NCBI GenBank assembly: GCA_963787445.1
Contig: CAWBCT010000005.1
Coordinates: forward strand, 256,001 to 320,000
Origin: an uncultured archaeon
GTDB taxonomy: Archaea > Micrarchaeota > Micrarchaeia > Micrarchaeales > CABMGC01
Direction of reading: 5' to 3'
Length of the DNA: 64,000 bases
Shown here: positions 13,307 to 63,911 of the stretch, one piece after another
Layout of the letters: every line of letters begins with the position of its first letter
Position numbering within the stretch: the stretch's first letter is position 1
Position numbers and translations under genes: made by a program
The notes under the pieces: model-generated
Told to the model about the DNA's origin: nothing
The model's database searches: none
The model's input: only the letters and a program-made list of their open reading frames with translations

Positions 13307-14431
13307 TTACTGCCTTGCTGCTTTCTTGTAAGATTTCAGTGTCTCCTTCACCACGTTCTCCCAGGTGAACCCGCGGGCCTTATGAAGCCCTTCTTTTTGA
13401 GCAGCTCGCGCTTCTTCTTGTCTTTCGACAGCTCGTAGACCTTCTTCGCCCACTCCTTGAGTCTGCGGGTTTGTCAACGAGCAACGCGGCCCCGCCTGCA
13501 GCCTCAGGGAGCGCGGATGCCCTGGAGGTTATTACAGGTGTGCCACAGGCCATCGCCTCTATTATCGGGAACCCGAGGCCTTCGTATATGGAGGGATAAA
13601 CTGAAAGAAGGGCACAGCCGTAGAGAAGCTGGAGGTCCTTGCCGTACACCCAGGTAAGTCCGATAACGTCCTTTCCTTCCTCAAGCTTCAGCTCCTTGAG
13701 CCTGGGCGCCAGCTTGACCATGTCGACGCGCGTCAATACCAATGGCATTGTGGAGTTGTACTTGTGTTTTAGTATGGACCACGCGCGCAGCATCGTGTCG
13801 GTGTTCTTGTTGGAGGCCATTCCTCCGCCAACATATATGACGTAGTCCGATGGTCCGAGCTTGTATCTCTTCCTTACGTACGCAGGACCTGTGCGTCTGT
13901 CCTTCGCGTTAACCGGGTGGAGGCTTCAACCCCAAAGTATGTGACGTCGATGCGGTTGAGCGGGAAGCCGTACTTCTCGTGGATCTCGTGGCGCTGCGTG
14001 TCGGATACGGAGATTATGCGGTCTGCAAAGCGGGCAGCGGTCCTATAGTTCAACAGCCAGTAGGCGGTCTCCTTCAGAGAGAAGTTGAAGTACTCCGAGT
14101 GGAGGCCGTGGAAGGTTGAGACCAGGGCCACCTTGCGCAGTGACTTCGGCACCAGCGGCAGCGTGTAGGCCATGGAATGGTACACGTCTATCTTGTCCCG
14201 GTCCAGCAGGTCGGTAAACAGCTTGGTTCGCCAAAGGGGATAGGAAAGGTTTACCTTTCGCACCGTATAGTTGCCGGTGAAATTGAGCTTCGGGACCTGG
14301 TTCTTGTTCACGTATATGACGTACTCGTTCTCCTTGTCATTTTTTAGCAGATGCTCAGTGAGCTCGAAGGAGTACTTGACTATGCCGCTGCCCGGCTTGA
14401 GGAAGATTCTGCCGTATAGGCCAATTTTCAT
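13307..14431 (-). CDS. GT4 glycosyltransferase, frameshifted
   Basis: ORFs 13874-14449 and 13380-13820; YPSIYEGLGFPIIEAMACGTPVI. Confidence 0.85.
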
Positions 14432-14610
14432 CTTATTCACATTCAACAAAGTGCGCAGAAAGGCAAGTGCGCCATAATCAAATAATAAGTATGAGGCAGT
14501 ATTTATTAATTACTTCGCAATACCCGCAGTTCCGACGACTATGGTGGTTAAGTTTGTGTATAAAAAGGTTTAGTTGCTAGTTATTATCATAAAAGTGTTG
14601 GACGATTCAA

Positions 14611-15600
<990 letters not shown>

Positions 15601-16822
15601 GAGTTTACAGGCCTGCCTCCCTTTTTGAGATACCAACTCATCTTCTTCTTTTTCCGTAATCCATATTAGTTCCAGGCTCCGACTATCAGGTAGTCGGGCA
15701 TGTCGCTTCTGATGAACCGCTCGTGCTTTACGAGTATGTTCGCCTTTGGGATGTGGCGGCCTATCTTCGCAGGAGTGTAGTCATATGCATACTCTATCTG
15801 CTCGTTGGTTATCTCGCAGAAGTTAAGCAGCGTGGCGATCTTTGCCGGCGCCATCCAGATGGAAACGCGCTTCCCGTTCCTGTTCAGAGAGCCTATCAGC
15901 TTCCTGATCTCCCGCTTTCTCTGGTCGGCCTGTTTCTGGAGCCCCCTTCATCGTCTTGAGATCGTATAATCCGGACTGCTTCTCCAGCAGCATGAACCTT
16001 TTCAGCGGGCCCTCCTTTCCGTGCTTCCTTCCGGAGCACGCGGACCGAGCCGCCGAGCTGCTTCGGAAGGTACCTCACATCCACAATCTTGAGCCCGCAG
16101 CTGTGCGCAAGCCTGGTAAACGCCCTGATGTTCGCAAGACGTAGTAGTGCTCGGCGTAGATGGTGTCTATCTGGAAGTTCTTGACGAAATCCTTCAGCCA
16201 GTGGACCTCTATGGAAATGGTTCCCGTCTCTCCCGCAAGCCTCTTCATCCCCAGCAGCATGTCCCGGGGATCTGGGATATCGGCAAACCAGTTTGTTCGC
16301 CATTACAAGGTCTGCCGTGCCGTACTTGGTCGCCATGGAATCAGCCAGCTCGCTGCCGAAGAAGCTGTTTATGGTCTTGTGACCGTTGCTGTTGGCAAGC
16401 CGGGCCATGTTCTTCGTGGGTTCCACACCTATGACCTGCTTGAATCCTCCATGTTTCTTGAGCAGTGCTATCTCTGTGCCATCTAGTTGGAGCCCACCAC
16501 CACCGCAAACTCTCTGCGCTTCAGGTTCTTCTTCATTACAGAAGCCAGCGCCTTGAGATGATCAACTCGGGGCGTTATCCTTGATACTGAATAGGTGTAG
16601 TGGCTGTTGAATAGTTCTGACCTATCCACCAGCTCGGCCTGCTGGAAAAATGTGCAGTCTTTGCACCAGTAGCACACCAGCGGGTAGCTCTTCACCCTCT
16701 TTTAAGCTGCTGCTTGGTGAGAAACCCGTTGGCATTCGGCATGCTGCCCAGGTCGAGCACCTTGACCAGATTGTTGCTGCCACATACTTTGCACGAGTAA
16801 TCCAAAATATCACATCTATGCT

Positions 16823-17371
16823 TCAGTCTCTGCGTCCTGAAGCTTCGGCCAGCCTTTGTCCGAATAAGACAGTACCGGTTCGGCCAGAAGAGGAGCACGG
16901 TTATTCCCAATGCGGGGTCATTCCCCAGTACTCCCCTGCTCCACTCCTTTGAGTACTCCTTTGTCGTCCTATAAAGGATGGCCGTGTTGTCTTCAAGAGC
17001 CATGAAGCCATGCGCAAATCCTTCCGGGACCCACAGCATCCGGGGCTTGTCAGATGAAAGCCCCACTCCCTATCCATTTTGAATATGTTGCAGAGCTTTT
17101 CCTGATATCAACCACGACGTCGAATATGCTTCCGGAGAGAACCGTAACCAGCTTTCCTTGCTGCGCCGGTTTCAGCTGGTAGTGCAGACCGCGCACCACA
17201 TTTTTCCTTGACTTTGAGATGCTCTCCTGTGCAAAAGTCTGGGAAATGCCGTTGGCTTCAAACTCGGAGTGCTTATACATCTTCGATAAATGAGCCCTTG
17301 TTGTCAGGATGCGAGTCGCAGTCCACCAGCAGCACATCAGGGATGCCCAGTTTGGTGAATTTAAGTGTCAT
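16823..17371 (-). CDS. rmlC: dTDP-4-dehydrorhamnose 3,5-epimerase, frameshifted
   Basis: VVRGLHYQ, QGKLV, IFDVVVDIRKSS, LWVPEGFAHGF. Confidence 0.9.
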
Positions 17372-25817: not shown

Positions 25818-25915
25818 TGCAGGGGGAGAGATTTGTTCAGTTTTATTGAACTCCCGTAGGCCTAAGCCAACAGATCTTGAGTCTGTCGCATTTGACCAGG
25901 CTCTGCCACCCCTGC
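25818..25915 (-). tRNA. tRNA-Leu(CAA) with 13-nt T-loop intron at 58/59 (25833-25845)
   Basis: GCAGGGG/CCCCTGC acceptor, ACAGA-CT-CAA-GA-TCTGT, long variable arm, T loop TTCAA[TAAAACTGAACAA]AT. Confidence 0.92.
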
Positions 25916-26141
25916 AACATCTACTAATTGCAACATATTACATATTAAAACATATGATATACAATGTAAGATAATTTATCCTGATATTTAAAGGTATCGT
26001 TATTTGTTTTACGATGATATAATTGATTTTTGACGTCGGTGGGATTTGTACTTGCGTTGCCGACTGCGAAGATTTTTACATATGTTCAGACCATATTCAC
26101 TGTGTAATCGAGCATTGTTACGTAAGGCTTTAGATGGTAGG

Positions 26142-27581
26142 ATGGAGATCTCAAAGATATCTGATGTTAAATTTTCAATAGCGAAGGGAGCCCAGCCCGG
26201 AATGAATGGCGGAGTGGTCGTCTATGCCACGGAACCCATGCTGGAGAAGATGAAGGGAGATACTACACTTCAGCAGGCGATGAATGCGACAACCCTTCCG
26301 GGACTTATTGGAAACGTCTTGGTGATGCCCGATGGCCACCAAGGCTACGGCTTTCCGGTCGGTGGAGTTGCGGCATTTGATGCGGAAAACGGGATAATCT
26401 CACCGGGAGCGGTGGGCTTCGACATCAATTGCGGCGTACGCCTGATAAAGACAAACCTTACGGAGAAGGATTTGAAAGGAAATATCACTCAACTCTCCGA
26501 TGCACTCTTCAAGAATGTGCCAACGGGCGTTGGCAGCAAACTAAACCTAGGATTCACGCAGAGCGACCTTGAGAAAGTTGCACACGAAGGGGCAGAGTAC
26601 GCCATAGGCAAGGGCTTCGGGATGGAAAGTGACACGGAAAGCATAGAAGAGAACGGAAGACTTGCCGGGGCGGACTTCAAGGAGGTTAGCAAAGAGGCCA
26701 AGTCAAGAGGCCTGAACCAGTTGGGAACCCTAGGCGCAGGCAACCACTTTCTAGAAGTCCAAAAAGTAGAGAAGATATTTGATGAAAAGATTGCAAAGGC
26801 GTACGGGCTTGAGGAAAACCAGGTAGTGATAATGGTGCACACCGGCTCTCGCGGCTTCGGGCACCAGATCTGCAGCGACTTCCTGCGCACCCTGGTAACC
26901 TACCAGCAGGAGCACAACATAAGCATCGTTGACAAGGAGCTGAGCTACGCGCACATCGGCAGCAAGGAGGCGAACAGCTACATAAAGGCGATGAACTGCG
27001 CAGTCAACTTCGCTTTCACCAACAGGCAGATGATAACCCACCTCGTAAGAAAGAGTTTCTCGGAAGTGTTCGGCAGGAGCGCAGACGCGCTTGGCATGGA
27101 GCTGCTTTATGACGTTGCGCACAATATCGCAAAGCCCGAGATGCACACTTTTGAAGGAAAGAAGCGCATGCTTTACATACACCGCAAGGGCGCCACGCGC
27201 GCGTATCCAAAGGGCCTGGCTGAGGTACCTAGGAAATACCGCGCAGTTGGGCAGCCGGTCATAATACCGGGAAGCATGAGCACCGGAAGCTACGTCCTAT
27301 GCGGGATGGAGGGCTCGATGACGGAGTCTTTTGGCTCTGCCTGCCACGGTTCCGGCAGGGTGATGTCTCGCCACCAGGCGATGCGCGACATTCCGGCATC
27401 AAAGACATTTGAGTCGCTCAAGGCGAAGCACATTGAGATAAGGGTAAAGACACGGAAGCTCATAAGCGAGGAGGCGGAGTGGGCCTACAAGAACCCGGAT
27501 GACGTGGTCAGCGTCGTTGAACGGGCGAATCTTGCAAAGATCGTGTCAAAGAACAAGCCGATGATAGTGATAAAGGGATGA
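26142..27581 (+). CDS. rtcB: tRNA-splicing ligase RtcB
   Basis: MPDGHQGYGFPVGG, DINCGVR, GNHFLEVQ, HTGSRG, HN, HRKGAT, CHGSGR. Confidence 0.97.
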   Translation: MEISKISDVKFSIAKGAQPGMNGGVVVYATEPMLEKMKGDTTLQQAMNATTLPGLIGNVLVMPDGHQGYGFPVGGVAAFDAENGIISPGAVGFDINCGVRLIKTNLTEKDLKGNITQLSDALFKNVPTGVGSKLNLGFTQSDLEKVAHEGAEYAIGKGFGMESDTESIEENGRLAGADFKEVSKEAKSRGLNQLGTLGAGNHFLEVQKVEKIFDEKIAKAYGLEENQVVIMVHTGSRGFGHQICSDFLRTLVTYQQEHNISIVDKELSYAHIGSKEANSYIKAMNCAVNFAFTNRQMITHLVRKSFSEVFGRSADALGMELLYDVAHNIAKPEMHTFEGKKRMLYIHRKGATRAYPKGLAEVPRKYRAVGQPVIIPGSMSTGSYVLCGMEGSMTESFGSACHGSGRVMSRHQAMRDIPASKTFESLKAKHIEIRVKTRKLISEEAEWAYKNPDDVVSVVERANLAKIVSKNKPMIVIKG

Positions 27582-32969: not shown

Positions 32970-33305
32970 TTACTCCTCTTCCTTCTTCGGTTTCTCTATG
33001 ATGTACTTCTCGACTATCTTGATTACCTGGTCGATGGAGCGCTTGATGTCCGCCTCGGTCTTCGAGCCTGCGCAGATCACCTTCCCGTTCTTGAACAGAA
33101 GCAGGGCGGTCTTCGGGTCGGCTATCTTGCAGATCGCGCCCGGGAACTGCTCGGGCTCGTAGTCCACGTCGGGCGAGTTCTTCGCTATGGCGTAGAGGTC
33201 CAGCTCGACGCCCAGGTCTGCGCTGGCTACGATGTTGACTATCTTAAAATCAGGGTGAAGCAGCGCCTTCATGTTCGGCTTCTTTGGCTTCGGTTTCGCT
33301 ACCAT
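32970..33305 (-). CDS. Single-repeat TATA-binding-protein (TBP) domain protein
   Basis: IVNIVASADL..LDL, YEPEQFPG, LLFKNGKVICAGSK: exactly one TBP repeat in 111 aa. Confidence 0.9.
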   Translation of the reverse strand: MVAKPKPKKPNMKALLHPDFKIVNIVASADLGVELDLYAIAKNSPDVDYEPEQFPGAICKIADPKTALLLFKNGKVICAGSKTEADIKRSIDQVIKIVEKYIIEKPKKEEE

Positions 33306-34584: not shown

Positions 34585-34605
34585 GTGGGCCCGGAGAGAT
34601 TTGAA
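34585..34605. repeat. Duplicated tRNA-Ile 3' end (att-like), T-loop to past discriminator
   Basis: Identical to 35161-35181. Confidence 0.9.
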
Positions 34606-34612
34606 TCTTTTA

Positions 34613-34990
34613 TTATTTTCTGCTCTCTTTATTCTCAATTCTTTTTACAAATTGACAGTTCATACAAAGAACTTGATATCTGTTTGGATAGTTATTGTTT
34701 CTAAGCCACCTGTAAAATGGGTGTCCTGACGATAATGTGTTTCCTAATTCCTTGCGTTGCTCTGCACCATTCCCGTACACATGATCAATTGTTAATACTC
34801 TTATGTCTATTATTGGGCTTTCTAAAGGAAAATATTTGTGATGGAGTGCACATTTGATATTATTATTACTATAATGCATTAAAACTTCTTTTTTAACTTT
34901 TATAACATATTCTTTGTGAAGAGAATGACGGTGTGTAGCAGTTCTAATACGATATTTCTTCATGTAAGCTCTTTTGTTTTCCAATTCCAT
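34613..34990 (-). CDS. HNH-family endonuclease-like protein
   Basis: LTIDHVYGNG...FYRWL.NNNYP..YQVLCMNC, phage-type HNH motif with basic N-terminus. Confidence 0.8.
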   Translation of the reverse strand: MELENKRAYMKKYRIRTATHRHSLHKEYVIKVKKEVLMHYSNNNIKCALHHKYFPLESPIIDIRVLTIDHVYGNGAEQRKELGNTLSSGHPFYRWLRNNNYPNRYQVLCMNCQFVKRIENKESRK

Positions 34991-35109
34991 CACTTCATTC
35001 TTCTAATTATAACATAGTCTCCATTCTTTATTTTGGAGCTCGCAGGTATAGTTATCAAGAGTTGTCCATTAGACTTATTTTTCCAAACTTTCATTATTAT
35101 TCTCTCCAT
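34990..35109 (-). CDS. 39-aa AbrB/MazE-like DNA-binding peptide
   Basis: Manual translation MERIIMKVWKNKSNGQLLITIPASSKIKNGDYVIIRRMK*; GQLLITIP and GDYV motifs; TGATG overlap with HNH start. Confidence 0.65.
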   Translation of the reverse strand: MERIIMKVWKNKSNGQLLITIPASSKIKNGDYVIIRRMK

Positions 35110-35161
35110 ATTTTAATATTAATTAATATTAAACTAAATACTTTTCTATTGAATGTTTAGG

Positions 35162-35298
35162 TGGGCCCGGAGAGATTTGAACTCTCGGCCTCCCGATTTC
35201 CGCGTTGAAAAGAATCAACACATATCAGTCGGGTGCTCCAACCAGACTTTCAGCCTTGCACAATAATCTAAGTTACTGTACAAGAAAGCTACGGGCCC
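35162..35298 (-). tRNA. tRNA-Ile(GAT) with two introns: 37 nt at 13/14 (35249-35285) and 25 nt at 37/38 (35198-35222)
   Basis: Removing both gives GGGCCCGTAGCTTAGTCTGGTTGGAGCACCCGACTGATAATCGGGAGGCCGAGAGTTCAAATCTCTCCGGGCCCA. Confidence 0.92.
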
Positions 35299-35365: not shown

Positions 35366-36856
35366 TTATTCCGCATGCGAAGTAACCTTGTTTACGATGC
35401 AGTAGCCGTTCATAACCCCATGCAATATATTCGGGTTGGCAAAGTAGGTGACAGGCAGATATTTCCAAGCAGATTGTGAGGCACAGTTGCTGGATATGAT
35501 GGATGAGTAGGGCACTACGAAATAGAAGTCCACCAATGAGTAGGTGCTGTTTGAGAGCAGGTAGGGGATTGTGGTGTTGTAAACCAGGAAGGCCGTGCCG
35601 TTAGAGTAGAGATACTTGGCATAGACCGTGCTGGTGCTCCCCAAGAACTCAAACGTTGCGCTCGCCGTGCCGGGGCTCTGCAAAGACTCCGGAAGCGGGG
35701 AGCCGGCGTAGCCAACATAGGCCAGAATGGATGCGCTGAGCGTGTTATTCTCTATTGTCAGCGTTGTGCTGGTGCCGCTTCTGGACACGAATGTTGAAGG
35801 ATACCCTGGAAGCGTGAGCAGTGAGGTCTGCAGACCCGCCATTAGCGATGTGGATCCCGTACTGTATCCAGTATTCAGCAGGTAGGGGGAAACGTAAACC
35901 ACGTTCGTATAATTTAGGGTGAGAAGCAAATAGGCAAAAGAGAACGCGATCACAGCAGCCAGGAAGGGCGTCATGTAACTCGCTCTTGCCTGGTTTTTCC
36001 TTTGGCTGCGCTTGAGTTCAAGGCCGTATCTCTTGAGGAGCAGCACCATCAGGACTATCACTACATAGAAGACGATTATCCCTGCAAAAAGGTGCAGAAG
36101 GGACAGGGCGGAGCTTGGGCCGTAGGCTATCCAGAGCGCTGCAATAAGGCTCATCCTGGCAAGGTTGAGCACGAAGAATAGTACAATCGCGCTGAGGATC
36201 CACAGCGCTTTGCGTTTTATCTCTCCGTCAAAAAGATAGGCCAGAGGCAGAAGCAGCATCACCGTCGCCAGGAGAAGGCCCACTCCTACGCAGCTCTCAC
36301 CGATTCCTATCCTATAACCGGCTGCAAGGATGGTTATTGGCGGGGAGTAGGCGATGTGCGGGACTGCTGTGCTGAGTATGTAATAAACAAGCCGGGTGTT
36401 AGCCGATGCGAAGGCGGCGTTTAGGTTTAGGAGTGGCGTAAGAAGCAGCGGTGAGGCGAAGAGCGCATAGATTAGAAGCGGCGCGAAGCGCTTGAGGGCT
36501 TTTGCCCCGAATATCAGGCATATCAAAGAGGCCAGAAGGATCGGCATCAGCAGGAGGTCAACTCGGTAGCTGAAGAAAAGGTACGAGAGTGTCAAACGCA
36601 GGAAAAAGTACGCAAGCAGAAAGGCGGCGAAAAGCCCTATGCCTATTGCAAGGTCCTGCGCCTGGGCGTCCGCCTCCGGCGGCTTGCGCAGGTAGAACAG
36701 CGCAAAAAGAGGCAGCATCAGCAGAGGTATGACTGCGTAGGTGGATGGGTCGGTGTCGCTGATGGTGAGCGGCGTCAGGAAAAGGGAGCTCGCGAGCACC
36801 ACGGCCATGAGCACCGCAAGCAGCAGAACTCCGATAGTTGCGCGATCGTGCCTCAC
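35366..36856 (-). CDS. Exosortase/archaeosortase family protein
   Basis: Multi-TM with ESCVG (Cys), NLAR (Arg), LHLFAG (His) triad; extra C-terminal soluble domain. Confidence 0.8.
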   Translation of the reverse strand: MRHDRATIGVLLLAVLMAVVLASSLFLTPLTISDTDPSTYAVIPLLMLPLFALFYLRKPPEADAQAQDLAIGIGLFAAFLLAYFFLRLTLSYLFFSYRVDLLLMPILLASLICLIFGAKALKRFAPLLIYALFASPLLLTPLLNLNAAFASANTRLVYYILSTAVPHIAYSPPITILAAGYRIGIGESCVGVGLLLATVMLLLPLAYLFDGEIKRKALWILSAIVLFFVLNLARMSLIAALWIAYGPSSALSLLHLFAGIIVFYVVIVLMVLLLKRYGLELKRSQRKNQARASYMTPFLAAVIAFSFAYLLLTLNYTNVVYVSPYLLNTGYSTGSTSLMAGLQTSLLTLPGYPSTFVSRSGTSTTLTIENNTLSASILAYVGYAGSPLPESLQSPGTASATFEFLGSTSTVYAKYLYSNGTAFLVYNTTIPYLLSNSTYSLVDFYFVVPYSSIISSNCASQSAWKYLPVTYFANPNILHGVMNGYCIVNKVTSHAE

Positions 36857-36870
36857 GGTTGCACCATTTT

Positions 36871-36928
36871 GTCCTCCGTCGATATAGGCTTCATCAAGTA
36901 TCAGCAGTTACTCTTGTCTTCACAGGAC
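36871..36928 (-). ncRNA. C/D box guide sRNA (double guide)
   Basis: GTCC-TG-TGAAGA(C)-12nt-CTGA(D')-TACT-TGATGA(C')-12nt-CGGA(D)-GGAC; terminal stem; TTTATA about 25 nt upstream. Confidence 0.75.
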
Positions 36929-36976
36929 GGTATTTATACTCCTTACGCCTATAAAGACTTTATCTTGGGTTTGGAG

Positions 36977-37417
36977 ATGGAGAAGCGATTCAGGTACATT
37001 CCACACACGGCGGACATAGGCTTCATAGCCTACGGCAGGACTTTCGGCAAGGCTATTGAGAGCTCAGTCTTGGCCATGATAACCATCATGTTCGACATGA
37101 AGAAGCTGGACAAGCACAAGGCGAGGGTGAAAAGCATCACGATAAAGGAGAAGGCCAAGTCGGAGGAGGACCTGGTGTGGTTCACCTTGCAGAGGGTTTT
37201 GCAATCAATCCAGATTAAATCACTAAGTCCTTTGGAATTCAAGGTCGGGTCAGTCAAGAAATCAAAAGAGGGCCTGCAACTAAGTGGAAAGCTTCTTTAC
37301 GCGGCTACGGACAGTGAAAAGTACGGTTTGCTGGAGGTGAAGGCAGTAACGCCGCACGAGCTCTCGGTAACCAGGAAGGATGGCATGTTCAGGATAAAGG
37401 TAATCGTCGATATTTGA
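36977..37417 (+). CDS. Archease (RtcB cofactor)
   Basis: FRYIPHTADIG..AYG, EVKAVT.H, C-terminal IVDI. Confidence 0.93.
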   Translation: MEKRFRYIPHTADIGFIAYGRTFGKAIESSVLAMITIMFDMKKLDKHKARVKSITIKEKAKSEEDLVWFTLQRVLQSIQIKSLSPLEFKVGSVKKSKEGLQLSGKLLYAATDSEKYGLLEVKAVTPHELSVTRKDGMFRIKVIVDI

Positions 37418-61883: not shown

Positions 61884-62591
61884 ATGGACCATAGAGAGAA
61901 TCAGGACCAAAATACTTACCAGAAGGAGCTTGAGCAGAGCAAGAAGGAGGACCCGAACAAGTATGACGACAAGGTCATGATTGACGGCCATCCGTTCCGA
62001 ATTCCCTACAAGATAATAAAGGAGGCCGTCTGGTCAGGCGTGAGCAAGGATGAGATGGTCAGCATGGAACATGCGGCCAGGATCCAGTACCGGTTGATGC
62101 TCCTCGAGCCCATAATCAGGGCCAAGATAGAGTTCATGAAGCAGAAGGTAACGATAATCTACAACCCCGACACTGCGGTGAATAGAAAAGAGAAGATCAG
62201 CATGGAGGAGCTGGTGAAGTTCATGGCGACAGAGGGGGTGAAGCTTGACCCGAACAAGGCCGAGATGCGCGACTTTGATTATGTTAACGAGATGTACAAG
62301 TACCAGTTCGACCCTCCGACAGTAAGGGAGAGACCGCCCTACGGCTATACCATGGAGGAGTGGAAGAAGATGAAGGGAGAGTACACCACCAAGATAAACG
62401 AGTCCAAGGTGGCGAGCGAGAGCAAGTTCAAGGGCTGGCAGGACAGCTATGCGGGCCAGCACCCGGAGGTCTTTGGCCAGAGTGTTGTTGCTGCGGCACC
62501 AGCAAAGAAGCCAACGCTGATGCAGAAACTTTTTGGCAAGAAAGATGGGAAGAAGAAAGACGAGAAGCAGTTTTGGTTCCACGGAGTCTAG
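61884..62591 (+). CDS. Hypothetical protein downstream of tes (possible HMA-like fold lacking CxxC)
   Basis: 235-aa ORF; A.RIQ..L...I..AKI......TIIYNP pattern. Confidence 0.6.
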   Translation: MDHRENQDQNTYQKELEQSKKEDPNKYDDKVMIDGHPFRIPYKIIKEAVWSGVSKDEMVSMEHAARIQYRLMLLEPIIRAKIEFMKQKVTIIYNPDTAVNRKEKISMEELVKFMATEGVKLDPNKAEMRDFDYVNEMYKYQFDPPTVRERPPYGYTMEEWKKMKGEYTTKINESKVASESKFKGWQDSYAGQHPEVFGQSVVAAAPAKKPTLMQKLFGKKDGKKKDEKQFWFHGV

Positions 62592-62624
62592 AATAGTTAA
62601 TTTAGTAATCTCTAGACGGCCTTA

Positions 62625-63038
62625 TCAGTTACCTAATAGTTTTGATAAATAACTTGTCTTAAATGTTTTAAGTTGAACTTTGTTGTCATAATCAAGATCA
62701 TTTGTCCAGATGCCATCGCAATTCAATGCGAGATAACAAGCAACATAGGGAACATCGGTTAAGTCGTTTCCCATTATTTCTTTGGCCTCTTCAATCTTGG
62801 CCTTGTAATCACTTAACTGTATTGTGCGGATTCTTTTTGACAGCAATATTATTAATAGGTCCAATTCTGTAACTGAGATTTTTGCTTTCTTAGCTATGTA
62901 GTTTTTATGTTTATCCAGTTCGTCGCGTATATAATCTGGTGAAATTAAAGTAAATTTGCCGCTAGTAATTATTTCCCTAGCTTTGCTATCTTTAATCAGC
63001 GCTGCAATTATACTATTTGCGTCTACAACAAGGATCAT
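62625..63038 (-). CDS. PIN-domain (VapC-like) toxin
   Basis: VVDANSI, D..DVPYVA, IWTND. Confidence 0.9.
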   Translation of the reverse strand: MILVVDANSIIAALIKDSKAREIITSGKFTLISPDYIRDELDKHKNYIAKKAKISVTELDLLIILLSKRIRTIQLSDYKAKIEEAKEIMGNDLTDVPYVACYLALNCDGIWTNDLDYDNKVQLKTFKTSYLSKLLGN

Positions 63039-63259
63039 AGTAACCCGTGTCGTTTGGCTATGCCTTCTTTTATTCTTCTACCAATTTCTAGGGCATCTTT
63101 TTCTGTTAATTTACTCTTTGAAAGTATTTCGTCCATAAGTTTTAGTTCTCCGGCCTTCTCTATCATCGCCTGCCTTGCGACTTCACTCCATTTTATTTCT
63201 TTGTGTTTTTTCATCACAGCAGTTAGCTCTGTGGGTATTGCTAAGGTCATATTTGTCAT
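63035..63259 (-). CDS. RHH/VapB-like antitoxin
   Basis: MTNMTLAIP.EL...MKKH.EIKWSEVARQA; ATGA overlap with PIN gene. Confidence 0.88.
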   Translation of the reverse strand: MTNMTLAIPTELTAVMKKHKEIKWSEVARQAMIEKAGELKLMDEILSKSKLTEKDALEIGRRIKEGIAKRHGLL

Positions 63260-63389
63260 ATCATCACTAGTGAATGTAATACGTAGAATAAGTATAAATA
63301 CTTATCTATGTGGGTCTATTGTTTCGGAGCAGGGACGACATATTTATTAAATCATCGTGAGAAGAGAGTACGTTACACAAGGCGTCAGA

Positions 63390-63911
63390 ATGAACGTAGC
63401 AGTACTCCTAACCCCTAAGGACTTCCGCGACGAGACCATGGCAAAGGCCATGGAGCTCATGCAGAAGTGGGACATAGGGATCTTCGTAGCGGGCTACAAC
63501 AAAGACGAGTGCGTCGGCTACCATGGCGCAGTCTACACCCCGAAGATTCTCGCTTCAGAGATAACCACGGACAACTTCGACGCAATGTTCATACCGGATG
63601 GGGCAGGGATAGAGACATTCAAGCTGTACGACCAGCGTGCTCTGCTGGACATCGTAAGGCACTTCAAGGAGAAGGGGAAGGTGCTCGCCTGCGTGAACAA
63701 CGCGATAAAGGTACTCGCACGGGCGAACGTCATAACGAACACCAAGATTGCCTGCGTGAAGGATGCAGAGACGGCGAGGCTGGTCCAGCTCTTCCACGGA
63801 AAGATAACGGCAAGCCCCGTCGAGTCGGACGGCAACATACTTACCTCGGCGAACAGCGAGAACACCTACGAGCTGATCGACCTTCTTCTGGACAAGCTCG
63901 GCGCAAGATAA
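63390..63911 (+). CDS. DJ-1/PfpI family protein
   Basis: DFRDE, FDAMFIPDG.G, VESDGNILTSA. Confidence 0.85.
   Translation: MNVAVLLTPKDFRDETMAKAMELMQKWDIGIFVAGYNKDECVGYHGAVYTPKILASEITTDNFDAMFIPDGAGIETFKLYDQRALLDIVRHFKEKGKVLACVNNAIKVLARANVITNTKIACVKDAETARLVQLFHGKITASPVESDGNILTSANSENTYELIDLLLDKLGAR

Follow-up and report, generated by a model that had tools for sequence, protein, structure and literature searches.

Williams reportedly distinguished, in 2002, classes of integration by their sublocation within transfer RNA (tRNA) genes. In archaea, fragments of tRNA 3' ends are described as a known mark of integration (PMC9897764). The attachment (att) site attB of Ms6 lies in the T-loop of a tRNA-Ala gene (PMC1762012), and the smallest thaumarchaeal cryptic integrated element described in PMC6563490 has a length of 2.6 kb and carries an integrase. 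In this study, we analysed a 64,000-nucleotide (nt) stretch of DNA from an uncultured archaeon of the Micrarchaeales (hereafter, the window), in which an AT-rich cassette with a predicted nuclease gene and a 39-amino-acid (aa) open reading frame (ORF) lies between a tRNA-Ile(GAU) gene and a duplicate of its 3' end. We propose, with a probability of roughly 0.4, that this cassette represents a mini integrative element of an archaeal chromosome, non-autonomous and att-bounded, which would be moved in trans and would carry a selfish nuclease as its payload.

The duplication is an exact 21-nt repeat at 34585-34605 and 35161-35181 (start-to-start distance, 576), which stretches to 24 nt when one mismatch is allowed. 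The tRNA gene is on the minus strand and the distal copy lies 576 bp downstream of the proximal one. The repeat spans the tRNA from the first base of the T-loop to the discriminator plus one base. The proximal, attL-like copy (35161-35181, minus strand) is within the working tRNA and comprises the T-loop, the 3' half of the T-stem, the 3' acceptor strand, and the discriminator plus one base; the distal, attR-like copy (34585-34605, minus strand) is a displaced tRNA 3' end without a T-stem partner upstream. When the 64 kb was searched with up to three mismatches, only these two copies were found, and dinucleotide-preserving shuffles gave an expectation of 0.00. Among the seven tRNA genes of the window, a duplicated 3' end was observed only for tRNA-Ile. 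Since the duplication begins at the edge of the T-loop and runs to the end of the tRNA, we propose site-specific integration; the att core of Ms6 mentioned above has the same T-loop geometry.

Between the two copies lies the cassette body (34606-35160, minus strand), an insert of 555 bp that contrasts with its surroundings in composition. Its GC content is about 31% (0.285-0.335 in 200-nt windows), compared with 0.55-0.64 in the flanks and 0.525 in the whole window. The GC content at third codon positions (GC3) was 0.276 in the larger gene (126 codons) and 0.350 in the small ORF (39 codons), against a host mean of 0.674 (standard deviation, 0.125; n = 63); the host set consisted of 63 of the 70 window ORFs, leaving out the cassette gene and six ORFs shorter than 125 aa. 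The insert is foreign DNA. The whole cassette is on the minus strand, and both of its ORFs are intact and co-directional with tRNA-Ile. The 39-aa ORF (34990-35109, minus strand) begins 52 nt past the proximal repeat, and its stop and the start codon of the nuclease gene overlap as TGATG. The nuclease gene (34613-34993, minus strand) encodes 126 aa from a GTG, or 125 aa from the ATG at 34990, and ends with TAATAA, 7 nt short of the distal repeat. Terminal inverted repeats were not found at the ends of the cassette. The Pfam scan of 67 window ORFs gave no integrase, transposase, Cas1, or virion gene, and three ORFs scanned separately likewise gave no integrase, transposase, or Cas1. The initial annotation had already described the exact duplication, the AT-rich DNA between its copies, the two coupled ORFs, and a compact, integrase-less insert with intact genes; the repeat search, the composition analysis, and the Pfam scan bear out this description.

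Subsequently, genomes were scanned with an eight-row alignment of the nuclease family, giving 15 loci. One of them, designated L001 and belonging to Candidatus Micrarchaeota, has the same layout as the window. Its nuclease gene, 70% identical in protein, is located 78 nt behind a tRNA-Ile(GAU) gene that has the anticodon-loop intron only, and the stretch is AT-rich (0.33-0.36 versus about 0.52). This copy has decayed. The nuclease gene contains an in-frame TGA, and the small ORF is reduced to four codons, which still overlap the nuclease start by TGATG. The distal repeat matches at 14 of 21 positions, 10 nt past the stop; local alignment gave 12 matches in 15 positions with a score of 9, which was equalled by only 1.1% of 746 background windows. 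None of the L001 ORFs of at least 100 aa matched the window, so that the tRNA and the cassette are all that the two regions share. Synteny between the regions was considered and rejected, because no flanking genes are shared.

Comparison of the nuclease genes of the window and L001 gave a proportion of synonymous differences (pS) of 0.689, which is saturated, a proportion of nonsynonymous differences (pN) of 0.162, and a ratio of nonsynonymous to synonymous rates (dN/dS) of 0.10. The nuclease gene is under purifying selection. With pS saturated and a dN/dS of 0.10, the cassette can be regarded as old and kept functional. The perfect repeat of the window, the decayed repeat of L001, and the saturated divergence together point to separate insertions of a long-lived unit. 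Moreover, the perfect repeat and the extreme GC3 argue that the insertion in the window is much younger than the split of the two copies. The presence of the same cassette behind tRNA-Ile with unrelated flanks argues for a cassette-sized unit rather than random prophage debris, as had been supposed when the locus was first annotated, and the dN/dS agrees with this. A conserved module of an AbrB-like and an HNH gene, recurring beside other tRNA 3' duplications, was not supported: in L001 the small ORF is present only as a four-codon vestige, and it has no counterpart at the 14 other loci.

The 126-aa protein had no match in Pfam (0 families at E <= 1), PHROG, NCBIfam, or the PDB sequences, and a PDB search with the profile of its family also gave 0 matches. 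A word-indexed search found seven relatives, the best having 75% and 73% identity. By an exhaustive search, 11,266 representative clusters (50% identity) were obtained at E <= 1e-3, and 1,929 at <= 1e-10. Two tandem domain copies were present in 98 of the 157 family proteins examined, and the Atlas neighbours of the 126-aa protein fell into clusters that were 94-100% viral. Judging from these comparisons, the family is very large, mostly linked to viruses, and uncurated. No second copy of the nuclease gene was found in the window.

The key residues of the window protein are C48-x-x-H51, D70-H71, R80, N100, and C110-x-N112-C113-Q114. Column conservation was counted over 299 domain copies of the family, in which C48 was found in 294, D70 in 282, H71 in 293, G76 in 292, R80 in 222, N100 in 205, P103 in 297, C110 in 298, N112 in 282, and C113 in 276. 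The first zinc pair is CxxC in 227 domains and has the CxxH form of the window protein (C48/H51) in only 7, and position 73, a Tyr in the window protein, is a His in 16. The terminal CMNCQ, which the initial annotation had singled out, is indeed present; it is no oddity, as position 114 is N in 153 domains, Q in 142, and another residue in 4.

In the AF2 model (predicted local distance difference test score, pLDDT, 91.2), a long N-terminal helix is accompanied by strands at 67-71 and 106-110 and a helix at 111-120. A beta-hairpin and helix core is thereby predicted to carry the active site, as in the HNH / beta-beta-alpha-metal superfamily, with H71 at the end of the first strand as the candidate catalytic His. 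Foldseek with this model gave nothing at E <= 0.001 against the PDB; against BFVD, three significant relatives were unnamed, and 25 of the 50 listed rows were named HNH (E 0.08-1.6). When 150 family representatives were searched against Pfam, HNH (PF01844) was matched by 11 (best E, 5.2e-6), Endonuclease_7 by 6 (best E, 1.7e-4), and HNH_5 by 2. A relative from cyanophage S-SRM01, deposited as "HNH endonuclease", matched Endonuclease_7 at 0.0018. No Pfam match reached the curated cut-off, and because the matches occur in relatives of the window protein and not in the protein itself, its link to Pfam HNH is transitive only. Taken together, the HNH label of the protein, which like the AbrB-like label had been guessed from motifs, draws on the motif columns, the Pfam matches of its relatives, and the BFVD folds, with no library match of its own. 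These lines of evidence indirectly support the prediction that the 126-aa protein is a zinc-bound beta-beta-alpha-metal nuclease of the HNH/Endo VII type.

For the 39-aa ORF, the only sequence recovered from a collection of 5.8 billion clusters was an identical one, found on four contigs, and longer relatives were not found. The exact 39-aa sequence thus occurs on four other contigs, yet the exact 126- or 125-aa nuclease sequence is absent from the protein collection. No meaningful match was obtained in Pfam, PHROG, NCBIfam, or the PDB sequences. The ORF had been termed AbrB-like; this was not upheld at the sequence level, as neither SpoVT/AbrB (PF04014) nor a related model was matched at E <= 1. 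The single-sequence AF2 model (pLDDT 80) predicts a small beta protein, whose best fold matches in the PDB were the dimeric RIFT-fold proteins 8jvq and 8jvr, at a non-significant E of 0.56-0.79 and a template modelling (TM) score of 0.60. RIFT and AbrB barrels are kin. Based on the model, the 39-aa protein could possibly be half of a cradle-loop barrel (AbrB/RIFT kin), and the name AbrB-like is a weak structural lead, not a finding. Atlas gave a MazE_antitoxin lead, likewise weak (rank 29, score 0.78).

A near-perfect AT palindrome (35109-35136, assigned to neither strand) with 14-nt arms that are 93% complementary and have no spacer adjoins the 39-aa ORF and shares the first base (35109) of its start codon. 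It is a candidate TATA/operator region as far as the sequence indicates. A sigma-70 promoter scan was set aside as inapplicable to archaea.

The surroundings of the family genes were also examined by a neighbour scan, which covered the 83 of 152 ORFs nearest each match, 6 at L001 and 77 beside the other 14 loci. Ten of these 14 are lone genes surrounded by cellular or unannotated ones; they lie, for example, between phoH and ybeY (L011), behind carA (L004), and between the genes for a nitroreductase and AhpC (L010). Three are prophage-like, with a terminase gene (L003) or tail genes (L005 and L012). In the remaining one (L007, 5794-6558) of Candidatus Nitrosotalea devanaterra, a two-domain member of the family lies between Cas1 and a gene for an OLD-type ATPase/TOPRIM nuclease. 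Judging from these Cas1 and OLD neighbours, the region is probably the casposon published as NitDev-C1 (PMC6563490). The part of that publication available to us mentions the OLD nuclease of NitDev-C1 and does not mention an HNH-type gene. At the family loci, the GC content of the gene is usually below that of the locus. A small ORF like the 39-aa ORF abuts the family gene at none of the 14 loci. These loci behave like free-standing selfish nuclease genes. The copies of L011 (5869-6330) and L004 (5821-6351), both from Acidobacteriaceae, share an extra C-terminal segment of about 60 aa and look like lone selfish-gene insertions. One family locus (L014) adjoins a BrnA antitoxin gene.

In the reading that we prefer, site-specific recombination across the 21-nt core would have brought the cassette into the tRNA gene. 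A helper virus or plasmid may have provided the recombinase in trans, by analogy with a cis-mobilizable element (CIME) or an integron cassette. The nuclease would be a selfish payload through which the cassette persists in the population, for instance by the cutting of DNA that lacks it, and the small protein may regulate the operon via the AT palindrome at its start. We rank this trans-moved mini-element first because no recombinase was found and the same two boundaries occur in two unrelated contexts. Several observations weigh against it. Neither the 64-kb window nor the six scanned L001 ORFs yielded a helper or an integrase with this att site, and the core of 21 nt is shorter than the 44-bp repeats reported for PYG1 (PMC9897764). 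The only other copy, that of L001, has decayed and thus lends no support to continued mobility, and the two copies may instead descend vertically from a single old insertion. In addition, the family gene had flanking direct repeats at none of the other 14 loci, and no integrase was present among the 77 ORFs scanned beside them. The absence of att duplications there indicates that the family spreads without them, which fits nuclease-driven homing better.

Homing would take the form of a self-mobilising free-standing nuclease that uses no integrase, cuts cassette-free tRNA-Ile loci, and has its cassette copied in by break repair, with the tRNA as the left-hand homology and the duplicated 21 nt as the right-hand homology. 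The makeup of the 14 other loci (mostly lone genes, with three prophage-like loci and one casposon), their lack of flanking repeats and nearby integrases, and the usually lower GC content of the gene all agree with this possibility, and proteins with the Endo VII motif include a proven homing endonuclease, F-CphI (PMC6083498). The purifying selection on the nuclease and the occurrence of the cassette at the same tRNA in two non-syntenic genomes are also in its favour. Still, break repair makes no target duplication, and the repeat would thus need a separate origin; it begins exactly at the T-loop edge, as the att cores of integrases do, and 21 nt is very little homology. The protein itself has Q instead of N at residue 114 and the rare CxxH zinc pair. 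For these reasons, we consider homing rather unlikely as an account of the cassette. A bolder form of this idea, a "portable homing" element, which we hold to be distinctly improbable, is that the nuclease cuts the conserved tRNA-Ile of any cassette-free genome and that the tRNA sequence on both sides, namely, the tRNA and the 21-nt duplicate, lets break repair insert the cassette irrespective of the genes nearby. It would explain why the same sub-kilobase unit is found behind tRNA-Ile without shared flanking genes and, if true, would represent recombinase-free site-specific insertion at tRNA genes across species.

It is also conceivable, if unlikely, that the cassette is an immobile leftover of a larger virus or plasmid that once occupied tRNA-Ile, lost everything except the gene pair between the att sites, and is now inherited vertically. 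It is well known that integrated elements can decay until only att-flanked remnants are left, as the definition of CIMEs reflects (PMC5704250); no mobility gene was found in the window ORFs scanned, and the in-frame TGA, the four-codon small ORF, and the degraded repeat of L001 are what decay leaves. The shared outline of the two copies is difficult to reconcile with this view: both genomes have the same two cassette boundaries and no common neighbours, and independent deletions would not stop alike. One old event fits poorly with a perfect repeat and a GC3 of 0.28 against 0.67, given the saturated synonymous divergence, and a dN/dS of 0.10 means that the gene has been kept functional. A toxin-antitoxin, immunity, or defence pair, in which the small protein neutralises or represses the nuclease and the pair is kept for addiction or defence, seems very improbable to us. 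An overlap of a small upstream gene with the nuclease start is typical of such pairs, in L001 the stop codon in the nuclease coincides with the loss of the small ORF, and the MazE_antitoxin lead and the BrnA neighbour of one family locus point in the same direction. The small ORF, however, has no relatives and no partner-like equivalent at the 14 other loci, its 39 aa are too short for a toxin-binding tail, the nuclease matches no Pfam toxin family, and plain decay would account for the pairing in L001 just as well. Finally, several split genes nearby hint at assembly indel errors, which raises the question of whether the repeat is an assembly artefact or a chance repeat. We attach almost no weight to this explanation: the chance expectation is 0.00 matches, the layout recurs in the independent assembly of L001, four other contigs carry the identical 39-aa ORF, and both ORFs are intact. 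A casposon or insertion sequence was rejected, since no terminal inverted repeats and, among the window ORFs scanned, no Cas1 were found.

The tRNA-Ile(GAU) gene that precedes the cassette occupies 35162-35298 on the minus strand and has two introns; it was identified by reading the sequence, by ARAGORN after intron removal, by folding, and by alignment of its exons with L001. Read from 35298 to 35162, it has the acceptor stem GGGCCCG/CGGGCCC, the anticodon loop CTGATAA with the anticodon GAT at 35226-35224, and the T-arm GAGAG-TTCAAAT-CTCTC. Intron 1, of 25 nt, is in the anticodon loop (about 35198-35222), and intron 2, of about 37 nt, is in the D-arm (about 35249-35285). Because the two introns interrupt the gene, it was missed by ARAGORN, which reports four other tRNAs in the window, and by the Rfam tRNA model at gathering scores, which reports six; at relaxed thresholds, Rfam gave only a partial match of the transfer-messenger RNA (tmRNA) model over the acceptor stem and T-arm. 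A script was used to remove D-arm segments of 30-44 nt and anticodon-side segments of 18-29 nt, and the products were fed to ARAGORN. Ile(gat) was called in 515 of the 9,900 combinations, the largest class, and nearly all of these calls paired a 25-nt anticodon-loop segment with a D-arm segment of 36-44 nt. The folded precursor showed the acceptor stem, the T-arm, and two intron hairpins, with a z-score of -6.1.

The exons can be aligned with those of the one-intron tRNA-Ile of L001 (5822-5924), from which the D-arm intron (35249-35285) is absent. This difference means that a non-canonical intron was gained or lost between the relatives. Two further intron-bearing tRNAs were detected in the window by Rfam (1251-1356 and 25818-25915), and genes for the RtcB ligase (26046-27581) and archease (36848-37417) are nearby. 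Micrarchaeota are described as rich in non-canonical tRNA introns (PMC3239211).

The other genes scanned in the window are ordinary archaeal ones, including those for the TATA-binding protein (TBP), L21e, fibrillarin, RtcB, archease, and sugar enzymes. The direct neighbours of the cassette code for a membrane protein of the exosortase family and for a secreted protein that matches Big_1 weakly. The TBP (32970-33305, minus strand) is only 111 aa long and contains just one TBP repeat (residues 19-101; Pfam TBP, 2.9e-28), whereas two are the norm in archaeal TBPs. Several sugar-pathway genes between 13380 and 17337 appear to be split into adjacent pieces, namely, a glycosyltransferase (13380-13820 / 13874-14449), a GDP-mannose dehydratase-like gene (14611-14880 / 14979-15413), and a dTDP-sugar epimerase (17050-17337 / 16692-17066), which represent either real frameshifts or assembly indel errors.

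A second AT-rich island was observed at 62501-63400, with a GC content of 0.36 and GC3 values of 0.32 and 0.28 against the host mean of 0.67. It contains a PIN_2 gene (62625-63038, minus strand) along with a divergent ORF of 98 aa (63054-63350), for which Pfam gave no match. A search for a flanking repeat of at least 14 nt found none around it. This island is possibly another foreign unit, of the toxin type.

A published description of such an att-framed mini nuclease cassette was not found in the full-text literature, which is not proof of its absence. To our knowledge, no such unit has been described before in the DPANN archaea, a little-studied group, so that the cassette, if mobile, would be the first. 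Its mobility would also show a single selfish nuclease gene to be framed by att-type tRNA duplications, in a unit far below the size (2.6 kb; PMC6563490) of the smallest archaeal element integrated at a tRNA that we found in print. The nuclease is of interest independently of this question. Its family is captured by no curated Pfam, PHROG, or NCBIfam model, has a motif between the HNH and Endo VII types, and spans phages, a casposon, and many cellular genomes, so that a curated model would improve the annotation of many genomes.

Compared with known systems, the cassette resembles integron gene cassettes in its single-gene size, whereas these use attC hairpins and an integron platform. We know of neither CIMEs nor integron cassettes at archaeal tRNA genes. 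Streptococcal CIMEs, as described in PMC5704250, retain attL and attR, lack integrase and transfer genes, and need a recombinase in trans for mobility. The window cassette is similar, with attL- and attR-like repeats kept and no integration or transfer genes found; CIMEs differ in being decay products of bacterial ICEs (integrative and conjugative elements) and IMEs (integrative and mobilizable elements), usually of several kb. Among the free-standing homing genes of phages, T4 MobE, an HNH enzyme (PMC2790892), and T4 SegB, in a tRNA gene cluster (PMC2330249), are comparable as single small nuclease genes between conserved genes, near tRNA genes, and without an intron or intein. This layout of a lone nuclease gene is also seen at ten of the 14 other family loci. 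In contrast, the T4 genes spread in phage co-infection and without target duplication, and the cassette lies in an archaeal chromosome with a 21-nt duplication. The conserved two-gene module of type II toxin-antitoxin systems was not seen, with a similar small ORF at none of the 14 other loci.

As for the nuclease, the closest described enzymes are the Endo VII-motif ("DHHRN") endonucleases, which include T4 endonuclease VII, Hpy99I, and F-CphI (PMC6083498). In the account given there, D40 and N62 of F-CphI bind the metal and H41 is catalytic. Like these enzymes, the window family would have a zinc site made of an N-terminal Cys pair and a C-terminal CxxC, an Asp-His pair closing the first strand, a conserved Arg in the interval, and a residue with an amide side chain right after the second CxxC; its motif lies at the C-terminus, as in the "endonuclease clade" of these proteins. 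D70, H71, R80, and C110/C113 of the window protein match the order of the Endo VII motif, the equivalence being by motif order and not by direct alignment. The second His (H43) and the Asn (N62) of DHHRN are not matched, the corresponding residues being Y73 and Q114. Because this second His of the motif (DHDH) is missing, the protein was not filed in the DHHRN family. It further differs in having CxxH, not CxxC, and its family has N or Q almost equally as the last residue (153/142). Asn100 is common in the family (205 of 299), as in true HNH proteins.

Among casposons, some have the 3' ends of tRNA genes as insertion sites and contain HNH genes (PMC4779613, PMC6563490). The cassette is unlike them, having no Cas1, polymerase, or terminal inverted repeats; its repeat is a 21-nt tRNA end without the inverted repeats that flank the target-site duplications of casposons. 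Archaeal tRNA elements that use tyrosine recombinases include PYG1, with its 44-bp repeats, and proviruses of 9-23 kb (PMC9897764). The cassette has direct repeats of a tRNA 3' end around foreign DNA, as these elements do, and an integrase gene of its own was not found. It is about five times smaller than the 2.6-kb thaumarchaeal element, lacks the integrase of that element, and has a shorter core than PYG1. What the cassette shares with these elements is that the 3' end of the tRNA is duplicated beyond a foreign insert, with the tRNA itself remaining intact.

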